Both the position numbers and the translations under genes were made by a program. Below the pieces are notes generated by a model. That model searched no databases. It was given only the letters and a program-made list of their open reading frames with translations, and was not told where the DNA came from. A stretch of 64,000 bases of DNA from a virus (Duplodnaviria; Caudoviricetes). The stretch is from positions 1 to 64,000 of IMG/VR virus record IMGVR_UViG_3300042010_000129; one strand, written 5' to 3'. Below, one piece after another: positions 443-53,265 of this stretch (position 1 is its first letter; every line of letters begins with the position of its first letter).

Positions 443-455
443 TATTTACAGTTTT
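443..455 (-). promoter_or_regulatory. AACTGTAAATA motif (putative phage promoter), pointing left
   Basis: tatttacagtttt = reverse complement of aaaactgtaaata; one of 16 ACTGTAAAT copies. Confidence 0.5.
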
Positions 456-541
456 GGATTTCATGTTTTTGGTTCGGATTCCCTGTACCCATTGGGCCTA
501 TTGCCGGGTTGCCATTCGAATCATTTGAATAAAAAGGCAAT

Positions 542-570
542 AAAAAAGGGGAACCTTTCGGCTCCCCTTT
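542..570 (-). terminator. Intrinsic terminator for the - strand operon
   Basis: On - strand: aaaggggagcc-gaaa-ggttcccc followed by T6; lies just after the 588..1487 stop. Confidence 0.85.
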
Positions 571-587
571 GGGTGGTTTGAAACGAT

Positions 588-1487
588 TTAAATGCTGCTG
601 GCAGTCAGTTTGTCGTAGAGTTCGAGGATGTTTGCGCTGAAATCAAACCCTTTCAACCCGTGCAAACAAACTTTGCAATCGGGCCAATCGTGTTCGGCGC
701 AATTGGTTGGCATTGCCATCATGCGCGCAGGCAGTGGGCACGGGTCTGCATCCATTAGCAAACGTTCGCAAACCAGTTTCACAACCTTGACCATTTGTTC
801 ACCGGTCAACAGGAAGTTTTCACCGGTTTGACCGTTGTTGATTTGCACGGTTGCCATCGGCTCTTCAATCACACCACATTCGGCAACAACGGGTTCAACG
901 GCCACCGCTGCATCGCACGTCGCTGGATCTACCGCAATTGGCGTTTCGCAAGGCTGATCCAACAATTCAGGCGACGGCGGATTTGGAATAACCTGTTGGA
1001 ACGTTCCGTCTTCCGGCACGCCTTCCATCATGGTATTTCCATTTACAGAAATACGAATTTTCCGTGGGCCGTAAGTCTGAATGCAAACCGACGTATCACC
1101 GTCGCGCTGGAAAGTCGTAACGTCTGCGTAACTCGGTTCCACTTGTGCAGGCGTGTACGGATTTGCGCAAGGTTGACCAGCATTCAAACGGGCTTCACGT
1201 GCTGCCCATTCTTCGCGTGTCCAATCGCCCATACTGGCGAGCGCCAGATTGCTTGCCGTGGCCCGGTGCTGTGCTTCGAGTTTGTGGGTGATTTCGTGTT
1301 TGATTTTGTCCCACATTTTTGCGAAGTGACGCGAATCCTTTTTCTGGATTGCGGTCGCCAGTTTATCACCGGTTTCCTTGGACAAAAGGGGCATGATCAT
1401 ACGCAACATGATGCTGCGTTTCTTTCCTGCATCCTTGTGACTGCGAGCCATGGCAATCATGTTGGATGCGATGATTAATTCTTTCAT
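588..1487 (-). CDS. Hypothetical protein, 299 aa
   Basis: Full ORF, start overlaps upstream stop, terminator follows; N-terminus MKELIIAS and internal LALAS resemble the A-x-A/S leader motif. Confidence 0.85.
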   Translation of the reverse strand: MKELIIASNMIAMARSHKDAGKKRSIMLRMIMPLLSKETGDKLATAIQKKDSRHFAKMWDKIKHEITHKLEAQHRATASNLALASMGDWTREEWAAREARLNAGQPCANPYTPAQVEPSYADVTTFQRDGDTSVCIQTYGPRKIRISVNGNTMMEGVPEDGTFQQVIPNPPSPELLDQPCETPIAVDPATCDAAVAVEPVVAECGVIEEPMATVQINNGQTGENFLLTGEQMVKVVKLVCERLLMDADPCPLPARMMAMPTNCAEHDWPDCKVCLHGLKGFDFSANILELYDKLTASSI

Positions 1488-2035
1488 TAATCCTCCTGCG
1501 GTGCCGCGTTGATAACCACAATTTCGTAGTCTTCAGTACGCAGAACTTTTTCGATTGTGGAATCAATCATGTGATTGGTCACAACGATTGCGCCCATCGG
1601 ATCGGCCTGCGCGTCGAGGAACAGTTGCGCAATTTCCTGCAATTCTTCATACGTCGGTTCCCAATTATCAGAACCTGCTTTGACGTGCAAAATGCGTTTC
1701 ATGGTTTGCAGCGTGTAACCGTCTTCGAAAACATCCTGCGGGCTGAACGATTCGTGGCCGTTGGAATAACGCACGAAATAACCGCCAGTGTGAACCGGGT
1801 TGCGTTCCATGTAATCGTCGCCAACTACCGCAACGAATTCACCGGTTTTATCGACCAGCACGTATTCGGTGTGGGAAGCAATCGGCAGCAAATCAACGGT
1901 GCCGTTTTCGCGTGGTACTTCTGCGTATTGCTGGGCAGGCACCGTGTCGTTGTGGGTGCCTTTCGCTTGCGCAGTGATGTGTGCGATTTGAAATGCTTCG
2001 ACTTGTTTGTGGCAATTGTAGATTGGAAAATTCAT
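1487..2035 (-). CDS. Conserved phage hypothetical protein, 182 aa
   Basis: CHKQVEA ... GGYFVRYSNGHESFSPQDVFEDGY is a recurrent phage domain signature; coupled overlaps on both sides. Confidence 0.85.
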   Translation of the reverse strand: MNFPIYNCHKQVEAFQIAHITAQAKGTHNDTVPAQQYAEVPRENGTVDLLPIASHTEYVLVDKTGEFVAVVGDDYMERNPVHTGGYFVRYSNGHESFSPQDVFEDGYTLQTMKRILHVKAGSDNWEPTYEELQEIAQLFLDAQADPMGAIVVTNHMIDSTIEKVLRTEDYEIVVINAAPQED

Positions 2036-2199
2036 TCGTAAACCTCGACAGTTGGAGTCCCGCGGCAGCCCATGTGTGGACGCTGCCCATTAGAAGAATC
2101 ATGGTGATACCAATCGGAATACATCGGCTCATGCATCCAGTATTCCCACCGGCCACCGATCAGGCGGCGATACCATTTGAACATCCGAAAGATATTCAT
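2032..2199 (-). CDS. Small hypothetical protein, 55 aa (MNIFRMFK...)
   Basis: Internal Met of ORF 2032..2349 gives ATGA overlaps at both ends. Confidence 0.65.
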   Translation of the reverse strand: MNIFRMFKWYRRLIGGRWEYWMHEPMYSDWYHHDSSNGQRPHMGCRGTPTVEVYE

Positions 2200-2669
2200 T
2201 TGAGTTTGTACCCGTAGTGGATCGAACCACCGTTTGGACTGCCGTTGGAAACGTAACCGCCGCGCAGTTCGAAAATGTCCTGCGCTTTGTTGATAATCTG
2301 CGTCCACTCTTCCGCGATTTGTGCATTCGTGAAAGTCAGGCGTGCGCAATTGTCCGGGCGATCAAAGATCAGGAACACCGAATCGGAGGCCAGTGCAATT
2401 TTCAGCAGGTTCGGGAAAACAGTCCACGGTTTCCACGCACTCAACGAAAGGAATTGCTTGTGGATTTCTGCACGGATGCTGGCAGTCGCCAACATCAAAC
2501 CGCTTTCCAGTTCCGGTTCGAAAAAGTTATTCGAATTGTTGGTGATTTGCCCGATGGAATAACCACGCAGCGCGTAGTGCGCATCGTCGTCGTTTTTGAC
2601 GATCAGTTGGCCGTCGATTGGCGTCACGTTGGTATCGTCGTCGGTGATAATCAGGTGAACGTATTTCAT
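2196..2669 (-). CDS. Hypothetical protein, 157 aa (MKYVHL...)
   Basis: Start at 2669 overlaps the stop of 2666..3748 (ATGA). Confidence 0.75.
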   Translation of the reverse strand: MKYVHLIITDDDTNVTPIDGQLIVKNDDDAHYALRGYSIGQITNNSNNFFEPELESGLMLATASIRAEIHKQFLSLSAWKPWTVFPNLLKIALASDSVFLIFDRPDNCARLTFTNAQIAEEWTQIINKAQDIFELRGGYVSNGSPNGGSIHYGYKLK

Positions 2670-3748
2670 CGCAGTTTGTATCCTTTCGAGATTGTCCTGA
2701 GTGGTTCGGTCGGTTGCAGCACGCGCGCAGAGCAAACCCATTCCAGCCGGGCCTGATCCTGCATAATTTTCCGTTCCTTGTCGCGAATTTTCAGATAGAG
2801 ATTTCGTTCTGGAATGCAGACGATATCACCTTCGTTCACGTCGCTGACTTCTGGCCCCATCACGATTGGAATATCGCTCATGGTTTGCAGACGGTCGTAA
2901 TCGAGTACGGTGGTTTCGCCGCCGATGTTCGCGTTAATCCGCTCGACGCCCATATCGAATTCAATTGCGAAATGGGTGAAGCGCTCGACCTTCACGTACA
3001 GGTCGATGGTGCGGCCTTCGAAGCGGCGCAAATCTGTAATCGTGATTTGTTTTCCGTCTTTGCGTAGCGGACGTTCACGCAGCACGAACAAATCTTCGCG
3101 GATGCTGTAGGTCGCAGAAACGAAATACTTCGGCACCAGCACTTGGAACATCACGTAACCGTTTTGTTCTTCACGCACGAATGCATGCGGGCTGCTGGTC
3201 GAATCCAAATGCACGCCTTCGAGTCCGGCCACATCGTAATGCGTGTAGACCTTGCGCTGCGCACCGTAGGATTTATAACCGGGTTGGCGCAGCGAGCGAT
3301 AGCAGATACCGCAATTGACCGAGCCTTGGTTTACCGAGTCCTCGAATTGTTCCGTTTCGATTCCGCGCAGGCCGTCGTTTGCATCTTCCTGAATACCGGA
3401 AACGTCGCGGACTTCCACGTCGTTAAACATGCGATCCATTTCCGTACCGAAAATATCTTCGTCTTGGAATTCGATCCCGATATTTTCCGAGGAACGATCA
3501 CGCTGGGGAATTGTTGGCGTTACGTTTGAGGTGGGCGGAATTTCGACGTTGGTACGGCAGCAGGAACAGGGGCGTCCGACTTGCCGATCAATCTGATACA
3601 GAACGATTTTAACCGCGTTAACGGCCAACGAATTCGAAACCTGATGGTTGTAAGCTGTAACCGTTTCATCCATTCGGGCTTGCGCCTGCTTCTGAATGAA
3701 ATTTCGTGCGTGATTACGACGCACATTAGCGGGGCCGCGTTTGATCAT
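2666..3748 (-). CDS. Hypothetical protein, 360 aa, possibly virion neck/head-completion type
   Basis: GGAGG SD upstream; CSCC and CGIC motifs as in some myophage neck proteins (weak inference). Confidence 0.8.
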   Translation of the reverse strand: MIKRGPANVRRNHARNFIQKQAQARMDETVTAYNHQVSNSLAVNAVKIVLYQIDRQVGRPCSCCRTNVEIPPTSNVTPTIPQRDRSSENIGIEFQDEDIFGTEMDRMFNDVEVRDVSGIQEDANDGLRGIETEQFEDSVNQGSVNCGICYRSLRQPGYKSYGAQRKVYTHYDVAGLEGVHLDSTSSPHAFVREEQNGYVMFQVLVPKYFVSATYSIREDLFVLRERPLRKDGKQITITDLRRFEGRTIDLYVKVERFTHFAIEFDMGVERINANIGGETTVLDYDRLQTMSDIPIVMGPEVSDVNEGDIVCIPERNLYLKIRDKERKIMQDQARLEWVCSARVLQPTEPLRTISKGYKLR

Positions 3749-3835
3749 AGATGATCCTCCATTCCCTTTAAATTACTGGCCTGAAAACCGAGGATGCGAA
3801 TTGTAATTCAGTAGTATGAGTTAAGGAGCAACACC

Positions 3836-4471
3836 ATGGCCCGTAAGCGTAAAGCAAAACCGAAGCCGATCAAGATTGAATTGCCTGTGCCCAAGAAGAA
3901 ACGTATTCGCGTAATGGGCGAAGACATGGGCACAAAGAATTACGCCGTAACGCAAATCGAAGCGTGGGTGAAAGAGGAAGACGGCAAACGCCGCATGTGC
4001 TTTAAAATCATCGGTACAAAGATGATGGAACACATGATTCACGACGTAAAGATTGCACAGCTTGAATGCCGTGCGTTTGTCGATGAATACAACCAATTGC
4101 CAGCCGTTGATTACATTGCAGCCGAACGCTTTCAGGCCCGGCCCGGTCGCGGTGCTGGAACCACGGTTGAAGCCATTTCCATGATGCTTGGCGTAATGAT
4201 GATCCTGCGCCCGGACGTTCCAACCGAGTTCTATACGGCTGCAACGTGGAAAAACGAATTCAATCGGACGCCCGCCGATTTGAAAGAGATGTACGAAGAC
4301 CTGAAAGTGAAATACAAAGGCCAAGGAATCGTGATTCACCAACTGGATTCGTTCCTTATCGCGCTTTACCACGCAGCGAAATTATTGCGTGTTCCGGCCT
4401 ATGATTTCATTCATTCGCATACCGATGAAGAACGACTTTTCAATGTCCTTTCCAAAGCCCCAACCCTTTAA
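3836..4471 (+). CDS. RuvC-like Holliday junction resolvase
   Basis: RNase H-fold pattern VMGEDMGTKNYA, IAAERFQ, WK, HQLDSFLIA; AAGGAG SD; Lys-rich N-tail. Confidence 0.75.
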   Translation: MARKRKAKPKPIKIELPVPKKKRIRVMGEDMGTKNYAVTQIEAWVKEEDGKRRMCFKIIGTKMMEHMIHDVKIAQLECRAFVDEYNQLPAVDYIAAERFQARPGRGAGTTVEAISMMLGVMMILRPDVPTEFYTAATWKNEFNRTPADLKEMYEDLKVKYKGQGIVIHQLDSFLIALYHAAKLLRVPAYDFIHSHTDEERLFNVLSKAPTL

Positions 4472-6510: not shown

Positions 6511-6821
6511 TAAATATTCCCCGCTGTTGCATGTTTGGTGCGCAGTGCAATTGTCAGCGTGCGCTTTTTCAATTCACCTTGACGTAGCAACTCAAGCTGT
6601 TCGAGTTTTGCATTAATGCTTTTCTCGGTGGCAATTGTCCACAAGAATACATTTGTCAGCAGCAAATCCCCACCGGGCAAGCCACGCGCCCCAGCGCCCC
6701 ATGTACCTACACCGAATTCGAAGTGCAGGGCCTTGTCTACTTTGTCTTCCATGTTGTACAGGCTTTGCAGTGCGGCTGTCGTTTCTTCATCCGCGTACTT
6801 TTCGTTTGGTTGGTTCGACAC
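6510..6821 (-). CDS. Hypothetical protein, 103 aa
   Basis: GTG start; in the primase operon. Confidence 0.7.
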   Translation of the reverse strand: MSNQPNEKYADEETTAALQSLYNMEDKVDKALHFEFGVGTWGAGARGLPGGDLLLTNVFLWTIATEKSINAKLEQLELLRQGELKKRTLTIALRTKHATAGNI

Positions 6822-7908
6822 TTTTTGTGATCCTCTTCGGTTTCTTTTCCATGGACAGCTTCGGGAATTCCTTGCTGGTTTTCTCGATAGCCTTAACTTT
6901 CTTCACTTTCTTTTTCTTCGGCTTTTCTTCTTGGCCGTAGGCGTAGACAATATCCTTCACCTTGTCTATCAGCTTCTGCGGTGCGGCGTCCGGGTCAAGC
7001 TTGATCAGATTGCCTTCGTCGTCATACTTGCACGGCAATTTCAGTTCTTCGAAATCCAGCTGACCGTCACAGAAACTTTCAACCAATCGGGCCATCTGCT
7101 TACCGGCTTTGTCGTTATCCGTCAGCGTGTAAACCTTCGTGATGCCGAGGCCTTGCAGCAGCATCAATTTACGCGGGCCAAACATTTTCGAACCGAGAAT
7201 CGCACAGGCCGGGATTTTATTCAGCACCAGACGCAGCCAGTCACGCGGGCCTTCACACAGCACCACCGCTTTGCAACCGAACAAATCGTACTTGCGTATA
7301 AAATCGTAACCGAGCAAACCGTAGTCCATTACCCAATCACCTTTGGTGTTGATATAGGACAATCCGGTTTCCTGTTTTTCCATCAACGCTTTAACGCCGC
7401 CCTTGTACCGGCCATTAATGTAAATAGGAAGAGCAAGCAAAACGTCTTCGCGTTGATCCTCACTGAACATGTGACCATTCACGCGTTCGATCATTGTGCC
7501 GGGATATCCGCGCCAGTCTTTTTCCTTGGGCCACGGAATTACCGCGCCGCCCAATTCTTCGTAGAGTCGCCCGATGGAACGGTTATTCGTATTTTCTCTT
7601 TCTTTCTTTTTCCGGTTGTATCGTGCCCGGTCGCCAGCAGTTGATCCGTTGAAGAATTGCCATTTTTTCAACTGCTGTAAATCAAGCTTAGCCGCCAGCT
7701 TGTTCCACGGCCCCGATTCGCCACACGACCAACAGTTAAACGTTCCTACAGGCACCCGCGCTTCTAGGCTGATGTTAATGCCGAGCGATGGGTTACTGTC
7801 TTCGTGGAACGGACAAACGATTTCGAACGTGGTTGTTTTGAATCTGGTTGGGCCTTGGATTTTTTCTAGTTCGGCCATGATGACCGTGAAGGCATCATCA
7901 AGTTTCAT
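6787..7908 (-). CDS. dnaG: DNA primase (CHC2 zinc finger plus TOPRIM)
   Basis: CPFHEDSNPS...FNCWSCG zinc ribbon; LCEGPRD and LTDNDKAG TOPRIM motifs; Lys-rich C-tail. Confidence 0.9.
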   Translation of the reverse strand: MKLDDAFTVIMAELEKIQGPTRFKTTTFEIVCPFHEDSNPSLGINISLEARVPVGTFNCWSCGESGPWNKLAAKLDLQQLKKWQFFNGSTAGDRARYNRKKKERENTNNRSIGRLYEELGGAVIPWPKEKDWRGYPGTMIERVNGHMFSEDQREDVLLALPIYINGRYKGGVKALMEKQETGLSYINTKGDWVMDYGLLGYDFIRKYDLFGCKAVVLCEGPRDWLRLVLNKIPACAILGSKMFGPRKLMLLQGLGITKVYTLTDNDKAGKQMARLVESFCDGQLDFEELKLPCKYDDEGNLIKLDPDAAPQKLIDKVKDIVYAYGQEEKPKKKKVKKVKAIEKTSKEFPKLSMEKKPKRITKSVEPTKRKVRG

Positions 7909-7943: not shown

Positions 7944-7953
7944 ATTTACAGTT
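7944..7953 (-). promoter_or_regulatory. ACTGTAAAT motif upstream of the primase
   Basis: atttacagtt = reverse complement of aactgtaaat, ~35 nt before the primase start, same strand. Confidence 0.6.
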
Positions 7954-9880: not shown

Positions 9881-9890
9881 ACTGTAAATA
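9881..9890 (+). promoter_or_regulatory. ACTGTAAATA motif
   Basis: Directly after a terminator and ~30 nt before the next start. Confidence 0.65.
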
Positions 9891-9921
9891 ACAGATATAC
9901 CTATAAGCTCATGGTGTGTGC

Positions 9922-10440
9922 ATGCCTTACTTCACCGAATACCATTTGATTAAAGATCATTACGGCGACCGCGTAGCCGAACGCAGCGGCGTGCCACTGA
10001 TGCAACACATTGACGAAGGCCTTTTGATTCTGAATTGGTTGGGCGCAGCGGATTACATTAAGGGCGCGTACTGCCTGCATCCGCTGATTCAAAACGACAA
10101 CGATTATCGTAAAAATCTTGATGCCCTCATGTCTAATGAACGTGTGGGCATTTCTGCGTTTCAGCTTGCATTTGCCTACCGCAGACAGGCGAATGCCTAT
10201 CTGTGCAAGCCTGCTACAGACGATTGGACGCAGGACGAAATCAGCGAAGCAGTTGGAATCCTTTTGGAAGACATGCGCTTTATGCTGATCGCGGACAAGG
10301 TGCAGAACAAAAAAGATTTCATGCTTCACCACTACGGTTCCCATGCGCGCTCTGATCAGTTGCTGCGCTACTTCGACCAGTGGATGGAATATCTCAATTT
10401 CGATTATGAAGTGGGCAAGGAGATTATCTATGCTGGCTGA
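9922..10440 (+). CDS. Hypothetical protein with degenerate HD/Mesh1-like features
   Basis: RSGVPLMQH, AYCLHP and IADKVQN echo RelA/SpoT HD motifs, but HD is replaced by HP. Confidence 0.8.
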   Translation: MPYFTEYHLIKDHYGDRVAERSGVPLMQHIDEGLLILNWLGAADYIKGAYCLHPLIQNDNDYRKNLDALMSNERVGISAFQLAFAYRRQANAYLCKPATDDWTQDEISEAVGILLEDMRFMLIADKVQNKKDFMLHHYGSHARSDQLLRYFDQWMEYLNFDYEVGKEIIYAG

Positions 10441-13603: not shown

Positions 13604-13606
13604 AAA

Positions 13607-15502: not shown

Positions 15503-15509
15503 GGTCAAC

Positions 15510-16504: not shown

Positions 16505-16514
16505 ACTGTAAATA
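16504..16514 (+). promoter_or_regulatory. AACTGTAAATA motif
   Basis: Starts at the stop codon, ~50 nt before the next gene. Confidence 0.65.
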
Positions 16515-16562
16515 TATGGCAGGACAACGAATAATTGACTGCCATATTCCGTGAGGTGTGCG

Positions 16563-17229: not shown

Positions 17230-18066
17230 ATGACTCTTTTATCAGTGGATGGTACGAACACAATGCACCGGGCGTATCACGCTATTCGCCCGTTGAGTTA
17301 CAGGGGATTTCCCACGCACGTGATTAGCGGGTATTTTTCGATCCTGCGTTCTAATCTGAAAATCACGGGTGCGAAATTCTGCCTGAACTCGTTTGACCGC
17401 CCCGGTAAAAACTTCCGGCACGAATTGCTGGAGAACTACAAAGGCGACCGTCCAAAAGACGAAGAGAAAAGTAAATCCATTGCAAAACAGTTGCCGGTGA
17501 TTGTGGAACTGCTGGACGCGATGGGGTTTGCGATATTCGGTCGTGTCGGCGTAGAAGCTGACGACGTGATTGGTTCGACCGCTGCGAATTACACGGGCGG
17601 TCTGGCCTATATCCTTTCCAGCGACAAAGATTTTGCGCAGGAACTGATTCACAAACACGTTCGCCTGATCAATCCGAACAAGCAAGTGACCATTAGCCGT
17701 AAAAACTGTAAAGAAATATACGGGGTTGAAGCAAAACGAATGATCGACTTCCTAATGCTGGATGGGGATAAGGTCGATTGCATTCCGGGTATTCCCGGCG
17801 TTGGCGGCAAAACCGCAATCAAGCTGATTGAGGAATTCGGAAAGGCGGAAAACATCCCCCATGACCGGTTTCCAAAGAAGGCGCGAGAAACTGTAAATAC
17901 AAAGAAGATTCTGAAACTCAATCGACAGCTTGTAACCATACGGCACGACCTGTACGATGCGAACAAGGAATTGGATTTATCAATTTCTAAAGTGAACGTG
18001 AAAGCATTCACGCGCATTTGCGATAAATATGGATTGGACTCGTTGAAAAAGTCCGTCCTGAAGTAA
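17230..18066 (+). CDS. 5'-3' exonuclease / flap endonuclease (Pol I N-terminal domain family)
   Basis: VDGTN..HRAYHA, FD..FRHE..YKGDR, EADDVIG, SSDKDF, GDKVDCIPGIPGVGGKTA (H3TH). Confidence 0.95.
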   Translation: MTLLSVDGTNTMHRAYHAIRPLSYRGFPTHVISGYFSILRSNLKITGAKFCLNSFDRPGKNFRHELLENYKGDRPKDEEKSKSIAKQLPVIVELLDAMGFAIFGRVGVEADDVIGSTAANYTGGLAYILSSDKDFAQELIHKHVRLINPNKQVTISRKNCKEIYGVEAKRMIDFLMLDGDKVDCIPGIPGVGGKTAIKLIEEFGKAENIPHDRFPKKARETVNTKKILKLNRQLVTIRHDLYDANKELDLSISKVNVKAFTRICDKYGLDSLKKSVLK

Positions 18067-18784: not shown

Positions 18785-18804
18785 CATTTCTGCGGGAGAA
18801 AAAC

Positions 18805-22944: not shown

Positions 22945-22955
22945 AACTGTAAATC
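22945..22955 (+). promoter_or_regulatory. AACTGTAAATC motif
   Basis: Intergenic copy, immediately followed by a terminator hairpin. Confidence 0.45.
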
Positions 22956-23787: not shown

Positions 23788-25057
23788 CACTCTCCATCAC
23801 CTGTACGAAAAAGGAATTCTCAAAACGTGCGAACCAACGCATGATTTCGAGTCATATTCGTATGAGTACATGGGCCGACTGGTTAAGCAGCCCGTTACGG
23901 TTGGTACGCGTATGAAAAAATCAGACCTGTTGAATATCGTGCGCAGTGCGTGCGATGGAAACCTCGAAGACATGGCGACGGTTGCCATGCTTTACAACGT
24001 AGGCTTTGGCCTGCCGTTTGATCGTGATCGCGCAGTAGCGTGGATGCAATATTCGTTGGTGAACCCATCGAGCCAGTTCGACGCCGAATGTGAGTACGCG
24101 ATTAAATGCGCAGAGGAAGCGCCGGACGTTTCCTATCCGGACTCGCTGATTTATCCGTGTCTGGATATCGTGCGTAAAATTCACGATCATAAAAACACTG
24201 GCACCATTCGCAAAGGCTGTTCGGTTCTGCCGCGCTTTAAAGGCGTGCGCGTGTATTTGATTTATCGCACGCAGCCCGGCGTAACGCCGCATCTGTACGC
24301 AGGCTTTTATCACGACAAGGAGAATTATTTCCTTGCGCTGGATAAACTGGTTGCGTTGGGTGCGCCGCGCTATTTCGGTGAACTCCGGGGCCGCGTAACG
24401 ATTCCGGAATACACACCGTTCGGCCACAATGCGATGTATGTAATTGCTGGCACCGTTTACATTCCCGAATCGAAACGGAATGGCGACAAGATTAGCAAAG
24501 TGTTCAAAGAATTCCTGACGGATGAAACGCCGCAGCTGACACCGCAACACTTCAGCGTTGACGACACTGTTGCCATGCTGGAAGAGGCGCAGAAAACTGT
24601 AAATACTATTACACGGTCACAGAGCCGATTGGCGGAACAAGGTAAGGCCATTCCTTTGGAGTCGCTGCAACAATTGCAGAAGGCAAACAAACGAGTGGAT
24701 CAGCTTACGGCGCAGGTTAAGAACGCCAACCCGGAAGCCGAGTATCAAGCCTATCTCAAATCGCGCCCTGAAGCCCGTCTGCGCTTCGTTGCGACTGAAA
24801 TGTACCGCTGGAACCGGGACGGACTTAAAACCGTTCCAATGGGACGCCAGCAGCACCAGCAAATGCAATCGTTAGGGTTTCACAGCCTCACGCATCCAGC
24901 CCTCGAATTCGTTGGTCATGTCGCAGACACAACCGACGTGCGTGAAACTGTAAATAAATTCGAGAAGGCTATGGACGCAAAGGTATCTGCCTTAATCATT
25001 CAACCCGGCCCCGAATCGACGGTTCGGTTTGTAGACGTTACGAGGATTGATCTGTGA
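23771..25057 (+). CDS. SEL1-like repeat plus degenerate NAD-ligase adenylation-like domain, ~428 aa
   Basis: LYNVGFGLPFDRDRAVAWMQYS (SEL1-like); PRFKGVR, VIAGTVYIP, RLRFVA, QSLGF and VSALIIQ parallel LigA motifs. Confidence 0.8.
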   Translation: MQLLTSTLHHLYEKGILKTCEPTHDFESYSYEYMGRLVKQPVTVGTRMKKSDLLNIVRSACDGNLEDMATVAMLYNVGFGLPFDRDRAVAWMQYSLVNPSSQFDAECEYAIKCAEEAPDVSYPDSLIYPCLDIVRKIHDHKNTGTIRKGCSVLPRFKGVRVYLIYRTQPGVTPHLYAGFYHDKENYFLALDKLVALGAPRYFGELRGRVTIPEYTPFGHNAMYVIAGTVYIPESKRNGDKISKVFKEFLTDETPQLTPQHFSVDDTVAMLEEAQKTVNTITRSQSRLAEQGKAIPLESLQQLQKANKRVDQLTAQVKNANPEAEYQAYLKSRPEARLRFVATEMYRWNRDGLKTVPMGRQQHQQMQSLGFHSLTHPALEFVGHVADTTDVRETVNKFEKAMDAKVSALIIQPGPESTVRFVDVTRIDL

Positions 25058-25992
25058 GCAATGACATTTCGTACAACGAAGCACATGAGCAACAATTGAA
25101 ATCGAGCGAGCGCCAATTGGGCATCGCTACCGAACCGGAAAACGTTACACGCAACAAAGAAAATATTCCGGTTAAAGTTGCCGGTGAATTCCCGGTGCGG
25201 ATTGTGCCGCGTGTTGAAGTGGTATTCGGCGCCGTGCTGAATACTGTAAATGAAGTAATAGAACAGCACAAAACGCTGACGCCTTTGATCGGCCACGACA
25301 ACGGCGTAGTGGAAGAGGAAGACAATTCGGTTTCCCTCTACAGTCCGCTTTCGCGCAAATACAACGGCGCAGCATTGCAGCCGCTGGAATCGCTTTACGA
25401 ATTCCTTGCAGCCCTTGAGCTTGAGCAATATTTGATTGTCTGCGAAGACTCGGTATTGCAGCAGCGCATTCAAGGTCTGATCGACACCCTGCATTCGCAA
25501 TTGCAGGATACGTTCGGTGGCCCGGCCTTCGAACAACACGGCCTCGATTTTTCCGTGGCCCGCAGTGATTATTTCTCTACCAGCGTCACGCAGTACACGG
25601 TGGAAGAGAAAACTGTAAATAATATTCATCTGGTGATTCGTGTGTACATTCACGCGGCCAGCTTGACGAATACCCCTGACGATCCTGTCGAAGCTATTAA
25701 CAGCGCATTCGGTGCGCCATACCGGCAAGTGATCAAAAACTTCGCGACTGCAACCAAGATCAAAACTCAGATTGCAGTTGCATTTGATGTTTCTAATTTC
25801 ACTGTACGGCCTAACCTTCTGACTCTGTTCACCGCGCTTTGCGCAGAACCGGGCGCACAAGCGGACGCTGTAAACAAAGACGATCATATCGACGCAAACG
25901 TAATTGTTTCCGTCGCGCTGACAAACCCAAACGCCAAGGTGAAGACTGCCCCGAAAAAGGGTGTGGCACCGGCAAAACGCAAAGGTAGTTAA
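25054..25992 (+). CDS. Hypothetical protein, 312 aa
   Basis: GTGA overlap; contains two ACTGTAAAT copies. Confidence 0.8.
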   Translation: MSNDISYNEAHEQQLKSSERQLGIATEPENVTRNKENIPVKVAGEFPVRIVPRVEVVFGAVLNTVNEVIEQHKTLTPLIGHDNGVVEEEDNSVSLYSPLSRKYNGAALQPLESLYEFLAALELEQYLIVCEDSVLQQRIQGLIDTLHSQLQDTFGGPAFEQHGLDFSVARSDYFSTSVTQYTVEEKTVNNIHLVIRVYIHAASLTNTPDDPVEAINSAFGAPYRQVIKNFATATKIKTQIAVAFDVSNFTVRPNLLTLFTALCAEPGAQADAVNKDDHIDANVIVSVALTNPNAKVKTAPKKGVAPAKRKGS

Positions 25993-25997
25993 ATCTC

Positions 25998-26555
25998 ATG
26001 GCAAAGCCAGAAAAAACCGTTAAAGCAAAAGCACGCACCAAAGTTTCCCGTCTCGACAAAGCCCTGCGCAAGCTGACCGGCACCAGCGCCAAAACCCCGT
26101 TCAGCATGAAAACCGGCGTGTTCACCGTGACCGGTTTCAGCGTTGTTCCTGCCGAAGTTCCGGGCTACCTGATCGACCGCACCGCGACCCACACCATCTA
26201 TCGCCACAAGGCTACCAGCGCCTCGAAGAAAATGGTTGTGTCCGTGTTCGCAAACTCCGACGTTCTGCAACTGCTGGGCGGCAAGGAAGGCGGTAGCGTT
26301 ACCGTTCGCCGTCGTTCCGCTTTCACCAGCGCAACCGGCACCCTGAAATTCGACGGCACTTCGGTAATCGTTACCGACGCTGACGGCGGCGTTGCCGTAT
26401 TCGATCTGGCCGCTGGCGATTACGAAATCAAAGCCGCTGACACCGAAGGTTCGCAAACTTCCGGTCGTGGCGTGAAATCGTCTTCCGACGAAGGCAAGAA
26501 GAAAAAGAAAGTCGTCGATATCAAAGAAGGCGGCAAGAAAAAAGCAAAAAAGTAA
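25998..26555 (+). CDS. Hypothetical protein with Lys-rich termini, 185 aa
   Basis: Full ORF, strong codon bias. Confidence 0.85.
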   Translation: MAKPEKTVKAKARTKVSRLDKALRKLTGTSAKTPFSMKTGVFTVTGFSVVPAEVPGYLIDRTATHTIYRHKATSASKKMVVSVFANSDVLQLLGGKEGGSVTVRRRSAFTSATGTLKFDGTSVIVTDADGGVAVFDLAAGDYEIKAADTEGSQTSGRGVKSSSDEGKKKKKVVDIKEGGKKKAKK

Positions 26556-26612
26556 CTGACACCCGGTACATGGGCGACCTCGACTGAGTGCGCCCGTGAC
26601 CACCTCGCAGTA

Positions 26613-26660
26613 AACTGTAAATACACTGTACAAGATGTGCAGTGCAGAAAACTGTAAATC
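26613..26660 (+). promoter_or_regulatory. Tandem AACTGTAAAT motifs (26613-26623, 26650-26660)
   Basis: Two copies 37 nt apart upstream of the poly-Glu gene. Confidence 0.65.
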
Positions 26661-40280: not shown

Positions 40281-41531
40281 GTGGCTCATTCTAAATTTGA
40301 CGACCTGATCAAAGCGCTCAATGCCTTTGAATCCGGTATGGCAGAAAATACGCTCACGCGTAAAAGCGACATTATCAAACGGCTTGAAGAAATTTCGAAC
40401 CAAGCCACTATCCTGTTGAATCAGGGTAGCCTCCCAACGGGTAGCAAATCGACGCTTCTGAAGATCCGGAAACTGGTCAAAGAAACCGCCGAAGGTTTGC
40501 GCACCGACGTGTTCAGTTCCTTGGGGCCGATCCGTCGTATTTCTCGCGATCATTTGGGCACGCTTCACTCTGCATTGACTTTGCAGCTTGGCGGCGGTCT
40601 GACTGCTGAAGAGAAAACGCAAATCCGCGAAAGCTACGTCTCCGACGAAGATACGTCAGCCGAAGTCGAACGCCTCATTGAAGCATTCGATCCCGGTTCG
40701 TTGACCATCGGCGGCACGAAAGTTGATCTGCAATTGGCGCTGAATCATGTTCGCCAATTTCTGGATCAGAATTTCACGCTCTCGCAATTGCGCTCGATCC
40801 AGCCTTACAAATCCGGCGAATTGACTCCGGGCGGAAAGCCAGTCAAAAATCCTGACTCTGTTTGGAATGACCTCACGTACAGCGAAGTGCTGGCCGCGTC
40901 CGAGGAAACCCCAAAAGGCAAAACCCGTCTGGCCGCTCTCAAGCGCGAACTGGTCAAAAAACACGACGATGATTTGGCGACTCTTTCCGAGTCCTACAAA
41001 GAATTGTCGCGTCGTATGCCGCGAACCCTGAAACATCCCTTTGCCTCAATCTATTATCCCGTTGTTCCGATTTTCCAAGACATTGGCGTTTACAAAAATC
41101 CAACCCGTTTGGAAAACGCTGGCCTCAAGGTGACTCGCATTGGCGACCACTTTATCGTTCTGGAAAACCAACTGCTGCTGTGCATTGATCTTGATCGCAT
41201 CGGTATTAAAGACGGCATCCGTTTGACCAAAGACGGCCAGCGGATGAAAACTGTAAATAATAACAGTGCGTTGGAAACCGAAGTACACAAGATCGTTGGT
41301 CACATTAACGAAACGGCTCGCCACTCCGGCACTTCGTTTGCTGTTGCATCCGATACCATCGTGCGCAATCCGAACAACCCGCGAATCGCACTCGTCTGGT
41401 TGATTGAAGAAAAAGTTCGTAAGAAACTTGCCAACACGTTGACCAACACAAAAGTTCAGTGGGATATTCCGCGCCATCAAATGGAACCCACGCGTCTTAG
41501 CAAACGCCCTGCGCCAGCACGGACGAAGTGA
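40281..41531 (+). CDS. Hypothetical protein, 416 aa
   Basis: Long ORF with phage codon usage. Confidence 0.85.
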   Translation: MAHSKFDDLIKALNAFESGMAENTLTRKSDIIKRLEEISNQATILLNQGSLPTGSKSTLLKIRKLVKETAEGLRTDVFSSLGPIRRISRDHLGTLHSALTLQLGGGLTAEEKTQIRESYVSDEDTSAEVERLIEAFDPGSLTIGGTKVDLQLALNHVRQFLDQNFTLSQLRSIQPYKSGELTPGGKPVKNPDSVWNDLTYSEVLAASEETPKGKTRLAALKRELVKKHDDDLATLSESYKELSRRMPRTLKHPFASIYYPVVPIFQDIGVYKNPTRLENAGLKVTRIGDHFIVLENQLLLCIDLDRIGIKDGIRLTKDGQRMKTVNNNSALETEVHKIVGHINETARHSGTSFAVASDTIVRNPNNPRIALVWLIEEKVRKKLANTLTNTKVQWDIPRHQMEPTRLSKRPAPARTK

Positions 41532-42037
41532 CAGAAAAGTACAATGAGGGAGACTGCACGATTTGCGAAAAGTACCAGTCGCTTTTGCACTGGCACCACA
41601 CAATTCCGCAATCGCTTGGCGGTAAAAACAGCCTGCAAATCCCTCTTTGCGCTCAGTGTCATAACCTTCTGCATGCACATGCGTTGGCTATTTACGCTAG
41701 AACTAAAACAGGCCGAGCAATCCAGAAAAAATACTGGGCGACTCCGGCCATGGAACACAATGCAGGCCAGTGGTTAAAAATACTGGTAGAGGCAATTTTG
41801 TCTGACGAAGCTGTTGTGGGTAAACAGTACGTCATGCAATTCAAAGCGTCCCCTGCGTTGCACACAGCACTGCAACTGTTCAAATCGGACAGCAACGTAT
41901 CGTCGCTAGAGAAAGCGATGATATTAGCAATTAGTGATCATTTAAGAAATAGGGGCTACTTGGATAATGAGCGTTCAATCAGGGATCAAAGCACGGGTAA
42001 CAAAGGCACTTCGCGAAGTAAGCCCAACCTGTGGTGA
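41528..42037 (+). CDS. HNH endonuclease-domain protein
   Basis: CTIC...HWHHTIPQSLGG.N...LCAQCHNLLH. Confidence 0.85.
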   Translation: MTEKYNEGDCTICEKYQSLLHWHHTIPQSLGGKNSLQIPLCAQCHNLLHAHALAIYARTKTGRAIQKKYWATPAMEHNAGQWLKILVEAILSDEAVVGKQYVMQFKASPALHTALQLFKSDSNVSSLEKAMILAISDHLRNRGYLDNERSIRDQSTGNKGTSRSKPNLW

Positions 42038-42932
42038 TTGCAGCGGCCTACAAGACGACGTACTGGTCGAAGGAAATACGGTTCCATGTGGGGTGGTTCC
42101 GAAGGGTAATCTGACCAAGAAAAGTGCGACGGAAAAAGGTAATGTTTCGGCTAAAGAGTCCGCGAAAAACCGCGAACCAAAAACCGAGGCGTCTAGTATT
42201 TGTCCAAAGTTTTCGCCAAACACTCGCCCTGTCGGGGCGCTGGGCGATAACAAAATTGCTGAACTGGCTGACCTGATCGGCAGCATTGACGCTAAGGCCC
42301 TGCGTGCCCTTGGCGTCCTGATGTTTAACGAGCCTGCGACACGTGATCAAGGCATGACCTTTATGCAGAAGGTTTATGTTCGTTATCGCGGCGCAGCAAA
42401 CCGCAATTACATTTCCAATTTCATGCAAGCGTATGTCATGTACGCGACTTCACAGCAATACAAACTCATGAGCGCCGATGGCCGTTGCGTCCTGACTTAC
42501 GGGCCGCATTGCCGCCCGGTAATTCACACCGAAGCCGAATTTAAATCCATGTATGACAGCATGATGGCGAAAGGTGCATTGCTCGACCCTGATGCAACTA
42601 CTTTGATTTCCCGGCGCTGGCGCCACGAAGAGGAATTCAATCTCGGCATTTCTGATCTTGGCGATAAAATGGCTAAAGACGGAATCGGTGTTTCGACGAT
42701 TGACGATGTGTTTACCTCAAGTGGTGTTCGGAAAGGTCGCAAAAAAGGTTTGCCGGATCTTATCAGTCTGGTGGCCGATGCGGCAGCTGGTTACGACGTG
42801 GACAACATCGCCGCCAACTTTGTGGAACGCGACGTTAAGCGTGACAAAGGCGACGACGGTGATGATGACGCGCCGAAAAAGAAACGTGGTTCCGGGGTTA
42901 AAGTTCGTAACGTTCGTGGGGGTGCAGAATAA
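41967..42932 (+). CDS. Hypothetical protein with Cys motifs and D/K-rich C-tail
   Basis: TCGDC..PCG..CPKF; start uncertain because of the 71-nt overlap. Confidence 0.8.
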   Translation: MSVQSGIKARVTKALREVSPTCGDCSGLQDDVLVEGNTVPCGVVPKGNLTKKSATEKGNVSAKESAKNREPKTEASSICPKFSPNTRPVGALGDNKIAELADLIGSIDAKALRALGVLMFNEPATRDQGMTFMQKVYVRYRGAANRNYISNFMQAYVMYATSQQYKLMSADGRCVLTYGPHCRPVIHTEAEFKSMYDSMMAKGALLDPDATTLISRRWRHEEEFNLGISDLGDKMAKDGIGVSTIDDVFTSSGVRKGRKKGLPDLISLVADAAAGYDVDNIAANFVERDVKRDKGDDGDDDAPKKKRGSGVKVRNVRGGAE

Positions 42933-44038
42933 TGCTGGGTAAATACATCACTCAAATCGGAATTGATCCTCAGTCCCATGACGGGCAGCGCTTGATCGAG
43001 GAATGTATTCTCTGTTTGTCCGGCGTAAATTCTGCTTTCGATTTCCAGCGCAACGTCAAAACCATCGACCTGACCCCTACAGGTATGAGCGGAAAAGATG
43101 TGCGACTCGGCCTCATGGAAAAAAGCTATCTCACGGTCAACGTGAAATATGCAGCTTTGTTCCTCTCGCTTGTCCCAAACAATGCTGACGCCTACAACAA
43201 GCTCCAAGCGTATTTGAACGCGGAAGACATTGCGCTTTTCCGTCACTACTTTACGCGCCGTTCGTTCAAGGCCAACGTCAAGGCCTACGCTGTTGCGCGT
43301 GGTCTGATTGCCCGCGACGTTTCGATTGTGGCAATGCGTCGGGACAAAAAAGCGTTTGACGATCTTCTGGATAAAGCGACCCGCCACATTACATCCCGTG
43401 TGCGGAAAAAACTTAGTTTTGTGATGAAATCCGAAAACACCAGCAACAAGGATTTCAACGGCGACCTGACTTGCAAAGTCCTGCGCGCTTATCACTCGCT
43501 GATCCCGACAAAGCAGCCTGAAGCCTACATCGTGAATTACCTGCGCCGTTCCGCGTCCAATGAGACGACGAACCTGTGCAAGAAGCACACGACCGGCAAG
43601 CGGGGCCGTTTGGTGGCAACCGGTGATGACGGCTACGGCGGTCAGAATTATGAGGTTGTTTGCCGTTCGGAAAACCAGACTCACAAAGGCGCAGAAGGCG
43701 AGTCGGAATTCGACATGCTGATGGGTACTCAGGTTGAGGACTCGACGCCAACAATTGAATCGTCGATTTTAATGAGCCGTTTGTTCAGCAAGTTCAAAGG
43801 CCGCAAACTCAAAGTGCTGGAAATTTTGAGTGGGCACATCGACGAAGGTTTCACGCGGTTCCTGAAGCGCAATAATAAACTTGGCCGGGGCATCGACCAT
43901 ACCGACTACCAACGTCGTGTTCCGCACCAGACCTTTCTGAATACACTCGCTGAATATGTCGGCGTTTACCGGGAAGCGTTCATGCGTTTTGTGCAATACA
44001 TCGGTGGTGTACTGACTGCACATAAGGAGTTTGCTTAA
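42932..44038 (+). CDS. Possible second, ECF-like sigma factor, 368 aa
   Basis: AFDDLLDK..HITSRVRK..DFNGDLTCKVLRAY..NYLRRSASNETTNLCKK resembles sigma region 2 (weak). Confidence 0.45.
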   Translation: MLGKYITQIGIDPQSHDGQRLIEECILCLSGVNSAFDFQRNVKTIDLTPTGMSGKDVRLGLMEKSYLTVNVKYAALFLSLVPNNADAYNKLQAYLNAEDIALFRHYFTRRSFKANVKAYAVARGLIARDVSIVAMRRDKKAFDDLLDKATRHITSRVRKKLSFVMKSENTSNKDFNGDLTCKVLRAYHSLIPTKQPEAYIVNYLRRSASNETTNLCKKHTTGKRGRLVATGDDGYGGQNYEVVCRSENQTHKGAEGESEFDMLMGTQVEDSTPTIESSILMSRLFSKFKGRKLKVLEILSGHIDEGFTRFLKRNNKLGRGIDHTDYQRRVPHQTFLNTLAEYVGVYREAFMRFVQYIGGVLTAHKEFA

Positions 44039-50652: not shown

Positions 50653-50659
50653 GAAGAAA

Positions 50660-51298
50660 ATGCCAATCCTAGCCGATGCACTGGTTGAACCAATCAAAGA
50701 AGACGAAGGCCGTTATTTGCAGATGATTGCAGACGGCGACCTTGAAGAGTCCGAGCCATTTGGTTTTATGGGAATCGGATACAAACTTTACGTGGGCACT
50801 GATCGTTATGTTCCGGGCCTGTCGAATTGTCGGTTGGTCGTCCTGTTCAAAGGCGAAGATTGTGTTTATTCCTGCTATTTCAAAATGGCGGAAAACCAAT
50901 ACTTCGGAAATCGCGTGGTGCAGGTTGAGGTTCGGCAGTCTCCAACGTTGCCGGGCCTTGCACGCTCCATGATGCGCAATTATTTCCTGCGTTTTTATGA
51001 TTCGATTCGCACGGATCTTTCAAGCACACCGCAAGGCCGCAATATGTGGCAGCAATTCTACACGGACTATCGGAAATCCGGTGACGTGTTTTTCTACCAA
51101 GGGTTGGTAAATATCGACCTGCGCAAATCGGACGGGTCGAATAATCAAGATGCATCCTGTCCAGAGGTGGTAACTCACTTGCGCGCCATGCGCAACGCCT
51201 GCACCGTACTGCGTGAAGGGATGTGGCACGACAATAAGCAGGGTAACGTTATTGTTATCTACGCATCCAACAAACCTCTATGGACAAAAGATCAATGA
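50660..51298 (+). CDS. Hypothetical protein, 212 aa
   Basis: AGGA SD; ATGA overlap with the portal gene. Confidence 0.8.
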   Translation: MPILADALVEPIKEDEGRYLQMIADGDLEESEPFGFMGIGYKLYVGTDRYVPGLSNCRLVVLFKGEDCVYSCYFKMAENQYFGNRVVQVEVRQSPTLPGLARSMMRNYFLRFYDSIRTDLSSTPQGRNMWQQFYTDYRKSGDVFFYQGLVNIDLRKSDGSNNQDASCPEVVTHLRAMRNACTVLREGMWHDNKQGNVIVIYASNKPLWTKDQ

Positions 51299-53235
51299 AA
51301 CTACGAAAAACGAACCGGGTTCCAATCGGTCAAGCGCCTGCTAATCGCGCCCCGCAAGCGATGGGTACTGCAAAGCAGTATTACCCGAAAACCAATCAGC
51401 AAAAGATCGACGATTATCTGGCAACGGCAGGCAGCGGCGGCAACGCGCAAATGTCTCAGATGCCTATCGAAATCGACATTGATCCGATGTTGAAAGATAT
51501 CGTGTTTTCCGAAGACCTTGAACAGAAAAAACTGGTCATGCGGATTTACACGGACATGTATTACAACGATTCCATCGGCGGTTCCATTGTCGATATCAAA
51601 TCGCAGCTGATGTTCTCCGACTTCACCATTTCCGGAATCATGGATCGCCGGGTGATGGATGATTTTATGGAAAACGTGGATCGTCTGGATATCCGCAACC
51701 TGATGCCCGACGTGGCAATCGACTACAACGTAAAAGGCGGTTTCATCGGATCGCTTTTGTACAACGAAAAATCGCAAGTGTTCTCGCGGATCATGCCGCA
51801 CGCTTACGAAAACACAAAGATCGACATGCTGCCTTTCCACGGCACCGATCCGCTGATCACTGTAGCGTTTCCCGAATACATCCGGGCGACCATGGCTTCC
51901 GATAGTCCGCGTGTAAAAGCACTGCGTGAATTCCTCGGCGCCGACGTGATGAAACAGCTTTCGAACGAAGCGCTGGAACTCGACCAGAAATCCACCGTTT
52001 ACGTTCCGCGCCGTTCTGGTTCCAGTTCAACCGGCACCAGTTATTATCGTCGAATCATGCCGTGGTATTTGCTGGAGAAAAACCTTTTCCGTGGCACGTT
52101 GGTACGAAGTGCAATGCGTCAAAAAGGTATTCTGCACGTAACGCTTGACGGCGCTGGCGAATGGGAACCGACACTGGCCGACATGCAGGCCGTGATGGAT
52201 ATGTTCATGAACGCCGATGCTGACCCGGTAGGCGCCGTGGTTGCAACGCGTGGCGGTATTTCCACTGAGGAAATTCGTGACCCACAAGGCGGTTGGACAA
52301 TCTTCGATAACAAAGACGCAATCGACTCGATTAAAATGAAAGCACTCGGAATTTCCGATGCATTCCTTTCGGGTGACGCGACTTATGCAAACGGCGATAC
52401 TTCGACCAGTTTCTTTATCGACGCAATTCGTACTGAACGTGATTGGCTGACCCGCAAGACTTTGTACAGCCGCATTTTCCCGATGATTTCCGCGTTGAAA
52501 GGCTACACGCTGAACCGCGACGGCAAATTGATTACTCGCGGTAACAGCCTCGACAAACTCGATCCAATGGGCAGCTTCGAACGACTCAACGACGGCACCC
52601 GTCTTTTGATTCCGACGATCCATTGGGAAAAGACTTTGCAGCCGGAAGGCGATCAGCAATACATGGATATGCTGCAAGCCATGTCGGATAAAGGCGTACC
52701 TGTTCCACTGCGCGTTATGGCGGCGGCTGGTGGCCTGAACCTTGACCGTTTGTTGGCCGGTCAGGATTCCGATTTGTTGGCGCAAGAATCGCTTTATCAA
52801 TACCAAAAGAAAATCAAAGATTTGAAAAAGAAATACGGTATTGATGACGCTGGCGATATGGGCGGCGGTGGCATGGGCGGTGGCGGTTTCGCTTCTACTG
52901 CATCCAGCTACGATCAGCAATTGATGCACATGGCCCGCACTAATCCCGGTTTGTTCGAAGCATTCCGCGCACAGGCACAATCCATTTATAACCAGAACCT
53001 CGACAATACGCATTCCGATGTATTGGCCCGCAACAATGGTCAAATCGTTGGTTTGGCGAATCGCCAATTCGGTGAAATGGGCGATGCTTACGGCTATTCG
53101 CATGACGGTAAAAAGAAACATTTGACCAATCAAAAGTTGGCGAAAGAACGTCAGAACGAAAAGATCGTTAAATTCCTTCGGGATCGTGATGCTCGTACCG
53201 GCGTCGGTGCAAAGCGTTCGCGCACTCGTTTGTAA
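51295..53235 (+). CDS. Probable portal protein
   Basis: ~650 aa, near TerL; GTSYYRRI and ALGISDAFLSG segments plus an overall pattern like myophage portals. Confidence 0.6.
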   Translation: MKLRKTNRVPIGQAPANRAPQAMGTAKQYYPKTNQQKIDDYLATAGSGGNAQMSQMPIEIDIDPMLKDIVFSEDLEQKKLVMRIYTDMYYNDSIGGSIVDIKSQLMFSDFTISGIMDRRVMDDFMENVDRLDIRNLMPDVAIDYNVKGGFIGSLLYNEKSQVFSRIMPHAYENTKIDMLPFHGTDPLITVAFPEYIRATMASDSPRVKALREFLGADVMKQLSNEALELDQKSTVYVPRRSGSSSTGTSYYRRIMPWYLLEKNLFRGTLVRSAMRQKGILHVTLDGAGEWEPTLADMQAVMDMFMNADADPVGAVVATRGGISTEEIRDPQGGWTIFDNKDAIDSIKMKALGISDAFLSGDATYANGDTSTSFFIDAIRTERDWLTRKTLYSRIFPMISALKGYTLNRDGKLITRGNSLDKLDPMGSFERLNDGTRLLIPTIHWEKTLQPEGDQQYMDMLQAMSDKGVPVPLRVMAAAGGLNLDRLLAGQDSDLLAQESLYQYQKKIKDLKKKYGIDDAGDMGGGGMGGGGFASTASSYDQQLMHMARTNPGLFEAFRAQAQSIYNQNLDNTHSDVLARNNGQIVGLANRQFGEMGDAYGYSHDGKKKHLTNQKLAKERQNEKIVKFLRDRDARTGVGAKRSRTRL

Positions 53236-53254
53236 TTTATTCATAGCAGCCAAA

Positions 53255-53265
53255 AACTGTAAATA
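53255..53265 (+). promoter_or_regulatory. AACTGTAAATA motif
   Basis: 5 nt before the 5' arm of the rod-shaped RNA. Confidence 0.65.

Follow-up and report, generated by a model that had tools for sequence, protein, structure and literature searches.

A putative single-box promoter class of middle genes in a Lu11-like jumbo phage

The analysed sequence and its relatives

A 64 kb stretch of DNA from a tailed virus (positions 1 to 64,000 of IMG/VR record IMGVR_UViG_3300042010_000129; referred to as the window) carries repeated copies of the short box ACTGTAAAT. This box, the full form of which is AAACTGTAAATA, is very probably the phage's own promoter for its DNA-replication genes. A megablast comparison places the window next to the Pseudomonas jumbo phages HRDY3 (~80% identity) and Lu11 (~79%, in patches); on this sequence similarity, its source is a Lu11/HRDY3-like jumbo Pseudomonas phage.

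The window and HRDY3 have a common gene order: exonuclease, sigma factor, single-stranded DNA-binding protein (SSB), RecA, topoisomerase, helicase, terminase, portal, and baseplate. Gene blocks were called by codon usage and consist of a minus-strand block (588-3748), a mixed region up to position 7908, and an unbroken plus-strand block which extends from 7966 to the window end. The GC content is ~50% throughout. Scans of the window with Rfam and for tRNA genes gave no matches.

Genome-wide tests were made on the full genomes of the relatives Lu11, HRDY3, PaBG, and Erwinia phage Y3. In the following, ACTGTAAAT boxes are referred to as class A and TAATTTA boxes as class B. The boxes and the sigma-like genes of the window are listed in Table 1.

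Table 1. Class A boxes, class B boxes, and sigma-like genes in the window (ORF, open reading frame)
Feature	Position	Strand	Context
Class A box	444..452	-	93 nt past the terminator (570-545) of the minus-strand operon; faces ~440 nt without an ORF of at least 60 aa; HRDY3 counterpart retains AAAACTGTAAA
Class A box	7944..7952	-	58-nt divergent intergenic gap; 35 nt 5' of the primase-like gene 6787-7908 (-); shared with HRDY3 and Lu11
Class A box	9881..9889	+	Intergenic; 26 nt 5' of gene 9916-10440
Class A box	16505..16513	+	Abuts the TAA stop of gene 15992-16504; small ORF 16551-16820 next
Class A box	17890..17898	+	In the 5'-3' exonuclease gene 17230-18066, as Thr-Val-Asn; 238 nt 5' of gene 18137
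Class A box	22946..22954	+	4 nt past a stop codon; a strong terminator hairpin (22961-22985) begins 6 nt further on; then gene 23006
Six class A boxes	24596..26659 (2.1 kb)	+	In-gene: 24596, 24947, 25243, 25612; intergenic: 26614, 26651
Class A box	34599..34607	+	Overlaps and supplies the TAA stop of the sigma-1 gene; small ORF 34615-34809 begins 7 nt further on; then the Tad3-like gene
Class A box	35450..35458	+	58 nt 5' of the SSB gene 35517-36773
Class A box	41250..41258	+	In gene 40281-41531; 5' of the topoisomerase gene 41967-42932 and the sigma-2 gene
Class A box	53256..53264	+	21 nt past the portal gene stop; tandem with the class B box at 53233; no confident gene in the next ~100-500 nt
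Class B box	3769..3775	-	20 nt 5' of gene 2666-3748 (-)
Class B box	48874	+	In-gene
Class B box	53233..53239	+	Just past the portal gene; 23 nt before the class A box at 53256; tandem of both boxes kept in HRDY3 and Lu11
Class B box	55414..55420	+	Directly after a terminator; 11 nt 5' of gene 55432, tail/baseplate region
Sigma-70-family gene (sigma-1, 337 aa)	33592..34605	+	Regions sigma1.2, NCR (non-conserved region), sigma2, sigma3.0; short C-terminal domain
Second sigma-like gene (sigma-2, 368 aa)	42932..44038	+	Residues 139-221 fit sigma domain 2

Number, orientation and placement of the box

Sixteen exact copies of ACTGTAAAT occur in the window, 14 on the plus strand and two on the minus strand, while dinucleotide-preserving shuffles of the window contain 0.28 copies on average and never more than two. 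This number agrees with a preliminary description of the same DNA, the coordinates of which are exact for the copies at 7944, 9881, and 25243 and one base low for the other thirteen. In a de novo enrichment analysis, ACTGTAAAT proved to be the most over-represented 9-mer of both the window and Lu11 when poly-Glu codon repeats are set aside. Lu11 contains 36 exact copies of the box and HRDY3 contains 26 (reversed-pattern controls: 0 and 1, respectively). The top over-represented 9-mer in Erwinia phage Y3 is CTGTAAATA, and CTGTAAAT occurs 41 times in that genome compared to 7 for the control. PaBG has only a sparse and degenerate form, AA[C/G]TGTAAA[C/T].

The exact copies are co-oriented with the containing or following gene in 15 of 15 cases in the window, 36 of 36 in Lu11, and 26 of 26 in HRDY3. 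These are 77 of the 78 copies; the orientation of the one at 444 is not judgeable. The co-orientation reported in the preliminary description is thus confirmed, as is its placement of the latter copy after a minus-strand operon, the terminator of which lies upstream of the box. When one mismatch is permitted in the 11-mer, 95 of 97 sites are co-oriented, with mismatches tolerated only at positions -1, +8, and +9. A genome-wide scan for strand bias, which had been proposed earlier, found the bias to be essentially complete in the relatives: the shorter 8-mer CTGTAAA[TC] is co-oriented in 19/20 cases in the window, 50/55 in Lu11, 52/53 in HRDY3, 47/49 in Y3, and 23/28 in PaBG.

About half of the sites are intergenic, compared to ~12% of the DNA. 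From the box, the next start codon typically follows at a distance of 20-40 nt. At divergent junctions, the first outward gene bears the box, as seen for 7944(-) in the window and for 106018(-) and 107990(+) in Lu11. According to the preliminary description, many copies are found just after stop codons or terminators. Such a position relative to a stop codon is confirmed for the copies at 16505, 22946, 34599, 35450, and 53256. A position after terminators is not a general rule: under strict criteria, a terminator is located within 75 nt upstream of only 2 of the 98 CTGTAAAT sites in three genomes.

Matches to host-type sigma70 promoters are not more frequent in the window than in shuffled sequences (10 vs. 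14.4, 9 vs. 12.6, and 17 vs. 18.3), and the best of them agree at no more than 9 of 12 positions.

Conservation and in-gene copies

BLAST alignments cover the box at 15 of the 16 window sites for HRDY3 and at 8 sites for Lu11. The ACTGTAAA sequence is 100% identical in all of them, compared to only 61-74% identity, with indels, in the flanks of the aligned sites. The copy at 16505 has an exact counterpart in HRDY3 at the equivalent gene junction (record position 151553). At the junction following the sigma-1 gene (34599 in the window), variants of the box are present in PaBG (AAAACTGTCAATA; about 4005-4020 of the compared PaBG stretch, at the sigma/SSB junction) and in Y3 (AAAACTGTAAACA).

Six class A boxes are concentrated in a 2.1 kb array, which lies 5' of the gene for a poly-glutamate protein (26699-27229, plus strand). 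The four in-gene boxes of this array are distributed over two genes without known function. The array is also present in Lu11 (record positions 122330-124347) and, in the form of T>C variants, in HRDY3.

All six in-gene copies are read as ACT-GTA-AAT and thus encode Thr-Val-Asn, confirming a forced T-V-N reading that had been noticed before; the third reading frame would result in a TAA stop codon. The codons ACT GTA AAY at the in-gene sites are kept in three phages (window, HRDY3, and Lu11) even though the proteins are only 44-72% identical. The orthologues from PaBG and Y3 have NFE, NAS, TVR, IIA, or SGP at the same alignment positions and never Thr-Val-Asn. The tripeptide is therefore imposed by a signal in the DNA, not the reverse, and an origin of the in-gene copies from a protein motif was rejected. 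A dispersed repeat or mobile element as the source of the copies was rejected as well, since their flanks are unrelated beyond ~13 nt.

Anatomy of the box

An information profile was built from the 78 exact sites of the window, Lu11, and HRDY3. The core extends from -3 to +9. When extended by its flanks, the motif reads approximately A-A-A/T-ACTGTAAAT-A, which results in a 12-13 bp consensus, A-A-A/T-A-C-T-G-T-A-A-A-T/C-A. The final T of the core is followed by an A in 56 of the 78 sites. From -40 to -4, the information is ~0 bits; as nothing is conserved there, a -35 element is absent. A second peak is found downstream of the core and consists of G at +14, A at +16 (54/78), and a purine at +18.

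The conserved A seven nucleotides downstream of the box is probably the transcription start. If so, the element would be a 12-13 bp single-box promoter with TAAATA at -12 to -7, the canonical register of a -10 element, in which T-12 and A-11 are invariant, and AAACTG would represent an upstream extension.

The box is already marked in the GenBank record of Lu11 (JQ768459), where it is annotated as 16-nt "putative middle/late promoter" features consisting of CTGTAAATA followed by TA five bases later. The motif itself is therefore not new but has been known at the annotation level since the Lu11 annotation of 2012. Full-text literature searches found no experimental work on the box. The Lu11 features have the identical core, CTGTAAAT(A), and TA at the putative start; the four annotated features that were read share the core of the window copies. 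They also occupy the same positions before orthologous genes, e.g., at the DNA polymerase gene, in the SSB region, and at the post-portal junction. The Lu11 annotation differs in that it concerns another phage, is computational, lumps "middle/late", names no factor, and leaves TAATTTA unmarked.

Genes downstream of the box and a second box

In the window, class A boxes are followed by genes for a primase-like protein, SSB, and topoisomerase (the latter box being located within the upstream gene), by several genes of unknown function, and by the post-portal stretch. Genes directly downstream in HRDY3 and Lu11 code for DNA polymerase (two genes), clamp loader, thymidylate synthase, SbcD, and primase; the DNA ligase gene is reached from an in-gene copy. 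Among the downstream genes tested, 8 of 10 belong to the PHROG class of DNA, RNA, and nucleotide metabolism and none is structural. We thus assign class A to the middle (replication-gene) class rather than to the late class, and the box would be the promoter class of DNA-replication and nucleotide-metabolism genes in Lu11-like jumbo phages.

Two class A boxes face stretches without a convincing ORF. The stretch of ~440 nt faced by 444(-) (window 1-443) is 73% identical to HRDY3. The one faced by 53256 covers ~200 nt after the portal gene (53265-53480) and has a terminator-like site at its end. Neither stretch, taken on the minus and the plus strand, respectively, has an Rfam match; both may represent promoter-driven non-coding RNAs.

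A second element, TAATTTA followed by TA four to five bases later, was obtained by enrichment analysis of intergenic k-mers. Among its 43 copies in the window, Lu11, and HRDY3, 42 are co-oriented and 35 are intergenic. Nine of the 43 are located directly after terminators, compared to ~2% of all gene starts. TAATTTA is found ahead of the head-gene block, of both tail-sheath genes, and of the block that follows the head-tail connector, and is also enriched in PaBG (14 copies vs. 0 for the control). It is likely to be a late promoter class. Its geometry mirrors that of class A, with TAATTT at -12 to -7 and a start at A, and this shared geometry strengthens the promoter reading of both classes.

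Two sigma-like genes

The product of 33592-34605 (sigma-1) is a sigma-70-family protein of the group-1-like type. Its match to Pfam Sigma70_r2 scores 27.1 bits, above the cut-off of 24, and a profile of its homologues matches region 2 of RpoD and SigA. In the AlphaFold model (mean predicted local distance difference test score, pLDDT, of 80), residues 5-228 can be aligned with residues 112-446 of E. coli sigma70 (Z 12-15, root-mean-square deviation [rmsd] ~4 A). The aligned span corresponds to sigma1.2, the non-conserved region, and sigma2, and is followed by a helix at the place expected for region 3.0. An aromatic Y..FW motif aligns with residues Y430, W433, and W434 of sigma70.

Region 2 is detected in 36 of the 38 sigma-1 homologues, while Pfam Sigma70_r3 and Sigma70_r4 are found in none of the 38 at E<=1. 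The three C-terminal helices give only loose, high-rmsd global fits, which extend to about sigma70 residues 566-584 and do not reach the -35 recognition helix. The model is thus suggestive of a sigma factor devoid of the -35-binding helix of region 4.

According to tblastn, sigma-1 is encoded in 85 phage records: 49 from Erwinia, 14 from Pseudomonas, 8 from Dickeya, 5 from Burkholderia, and 4 from Xanthomonas phages, together with single records from phages of Yersinia, Salmonella, Alcaligenes, and Vibrio and from one unnamed phage. The gene order sigma-SSB-RecA is kept in PaBG and Y3. The sigma-1 gene is flanked by 32718-33338 (+) and 34822-35448 (+), which match the Pfam anti-Thoeris domains Tad2-like (E 5e-20) and Tad3 (E 5e-28), respectively. 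A 72-aa ORF further downstream (38400-38618, plus strand) has a weak match, below cut-off, to the Acb2/Tad1 hairpin. Taken together, these three ORFs look like an anti-defence cluster within the replication module.

A second sigma-like gene is located at 42932-44038 (sigma-2). In its model (pLDDT 81), residues 139-221 fit the N-terminal domain of SigE (Z 7.7, rmsd 2.8 A over 76 residues). Sigma factors make up most of the top 50 structural matches, and the global fits extend into region 4. The HRDY3 orthologue has a sub-threshold match to Sigma70_r2 (19 bits). Sequence searches with sigma-2 itself were negative for Pfam and for the PDB (phmmer and hmmsearch), and hhalign returned a probability of 0.1% against sigma-1. 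Based on the model, the product is possibly a second, highly diverged sigma factor. The gene is present in 83 phage records, with a genus spread that is nearly that of sigma-1. A weak SigmaE-like gene nearby has been noted by the authors of the PaBG genome paper (PMC7412058).

Domains of the RNA polymerase (RNAP) subunits beta and beta' were found in none of HRDY3, Lu11, and Y3, whereas the control was positive in 14 of 14 genomes. The profiles for AsiA (PF09010) and T7-type RNAP (PF00940) were blank in the relatives but also in the control genomes and are therefore uninformative. Jumbo phages without an RNAP often encode sigma homologues which "likely" direct the host RNAP to phage-specific promoters (2026 review, PMC13282480).

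Interpretation and alternative explanations

The analysis shows how often the box occurs, how it is oriented and placed, how well it is conserved, which classes of genes follow it, and that the candidate factors have sigma folds; that transcription starts at the box and which factor reads it are inferred. It is likely that ACTGTAAAT forms the core of a promoter of middle genes which is specific to the phage and consists of a -10 element only, and that this promoter is used by host core RNAP carrying a phage-encoded sigma-family factor. The preliminary description had proposed a single-box phage promoter resembling the late promoter of phage T4. This holds for the -10-only architecture, the lack of a -35 element, the start-like A, and the likeness in sequence. 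It does not hold for the promoter class, which is middle, with TAATTTA carried by the virion genes.

The gene at 33592 had been named as the probable reader of the box. That it codes for a sigma-70-family protein is borne out by Pfam and by the predicted fold. Its pairing with the box is plausible but unproven because a second sigma-like gene is conserved alongside and both genes are located downstream of ACTGTAAAT sites. If the box is a promoter, sigma-1 is the favoured reader of class A, at about an even chance, as its region 3.0 helix suits the upstream extension and as a -35-binding helix is not detectable. Sigma-2 would then read the TAATTTA boxes of the virion genes, giving rise to a middle-to-late cascade; such a role as late-gene factor fits with the location of its gene downstream of a class A box (41250). 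The complete scheme is a two-step sigma cascade on host RNAP with two single-box classes, in which sigma-1 would read AAACTGTAAATA at replication genes and the class A-driven sigma-2 would read TAATTTA at virion genes. In this complete form it is a speculation which we consider rather unlikely. It may apply to about 85 genomes of jumbo phages, Lu11-like ones and their relatives, from Pseudomonas, Erwinia, Dickeya, Burkholderia, and Xanthomonas.

Several points weigh against a phage promoter read by a phage sigma factor. Only 9 of the 16 window copies have A at +16. The strong hairpin that follows the 22946 box after 6 nt, an intrinsic terminator with an 11-bp stem and a T run, is awkward for a productive promoter; the arrangement is the same in HRDY3, and possibly the hairpin forms a structure at the start of the message or transcription from this site is attenuated. 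That sigma-1 lacks region 4 is deduced from the failure to detect it and from global alignments with a high rmsd. PaBG keeps the sigma-1 gene (51% identity) and yet has only sparse and degenerate boxes. Class A boxes lie upstream of both sigma-like genes, one of them at a distance of only 33 nt from the sigma-1 gene in Y3; for its own initial synthesis, a sigma-1 that reads class A would need read-through or an early promoter that was not seen. Finally, no transcription start data were found for the phage or its relatives. No RNA sequencing runs containing the window sequence are listed, the matches being contigs from DNA metagenomes and two wastewater runs with a small share.

The position of boxes before both sigma-like genes would also suit a promoter that is read by the host sigma70 holoenzyme after redirection by an early phage activator or appropriator, following the MotA/AsiA logic of T4. 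The phage sigma factors would then be middle products which read only later promoters such as TAATTTA. In support, two positions of the host -10 hexamer, T-12 and A-11, are retained in TAAATA. However, a MotA-type upstream site requires a -10-like element 12-13 bp downstream, given that T4-type middle promoters combine a MotA box at -30 with a host -10. At this distance there is no TAnnnT, conservation being restricted to +14 G, +16 A, and +18 R. Considered as a host -10 itself, the box is devoid of T-7 (position -7 is A in 72% of the sites) and of a -35 element, and it would make a poor extended -10 promoter (TGnTATAAT) since TG directly abuts TAAATA. No candidate activator was identified, and we regard a host-sigma70 promoter as improbable.

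Strict co-orientation would also be expected from an element that acts in the RNA, for example in endonuclease processing, in transcript stability, or as a translational operator of polycistronic transcripts. The frequent operon-internal location just past stop codons and the scarcity of upstream terminators (2/98) point in the same direction. What argues for a promoter over an RNA signal are the divergent junctions: the box is the first element on the outward strands, where no upstream co-oriented transcript is expected. In addition, the composition is AT-rich and -10-like with a conserved A at a fixed spacing, no conserved secondary structure or flank is visible, and the distance to the start codon varies so that there is no overlap with the ribosome-binding site. 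An RNA-level role thus appears quite improbable. The invariant 8-mer and the six copies within 2.1 kb (24596-26659) could suggest cooperative binding of a repressor, a nucleoid organiser, or a replication factor to a site that is not a promoter, an alternative already raised in the preliminary description. Such a protein would not account for the complete strand polarity, the peaked spacing to start codons, the start-like second peak, and the restriction to one functional gene class, and the ~350 nt spacing within the cluster is unlike that of iterons. We consider this explanation to be very improbable and the least probable of all.

If the promoter reading is correct, the box provides a testable map of middle transcription units in a widespread clade of jumbo phages that lack an RNAP. 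Class A, TAATTTA, and the two sigma-like genes would make up a simple system, with two factors for two single-box classes, which could be reconstituted in vitro, and they are a possible source of orthogonal promoter/sigma pairs for Pseudomonas engineering. The cascade, if true, would be SPO1-like with T4-like -10-only promoters and would include a sigma factor that lost -35 recognition.

Comparison with known promoter systems

The T4 late promoter is TATAAATA and is read by gp55 together with gp33 and the gp45 clamp. It resembles the class A box in being a lone AT-rich box at the -10 position without a -35 element, and 7 of 8 positions are identical (TGTAAATA here vs. TATAAATA in T4). A further likeness would be the use of a phage sigma-family protein on host core RNAP. 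In contrast to T4, where an 8-bp box is sufficient, the box described here spans 12-13 bp with an additional conserved AAAC upstream (A-A-A/T-A at -3 to 0, plus C1). Class A also precedes DNA-metabolism genes and not virion genes, the sheath and head modules carrying TAATTTA. The candidate sigma factor has 337 aa with sigma1.2/NCR/sigma2/sigma3.0, whereas the T4 factor has 185 aa and consists of region 2 only.

Bacillus phage SPO1 has a sigma cascade with gp28 for middle genes and gp33/gp34 for late genes. The two phage sigma-like proteins and the two promoter classes, sorted into replication and virion genes, are similar to SPO1, as would be their action in a cascade on host core RNAP. SPO1 promoters, however, have two boxes (-35 and -10), while both classes described here have a single box.

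The gp36-dependent promoters of phiEco32 have a single -10-type element, TAATGTATA, and gp36 is similar to extracytoplasmic function (ECF) sigma factors. Likeness to phiEco32 would consist in a phage sigma-70-family factor and an extended single-box promoter without a -35 element; differences are found in the consensus, in the ECF-like type of gp36, and in the phage family, which is not related.

Further features of the window

Long antisense ORFs of 1290 and 1000 aa are found on the minus strand at 11645-15517 and 18784-21786, respectively, opposite to plus-strand genes that have good support. A codon usage which avoids TTA, CTA, and TCA has probably given rise to them as a by-product.

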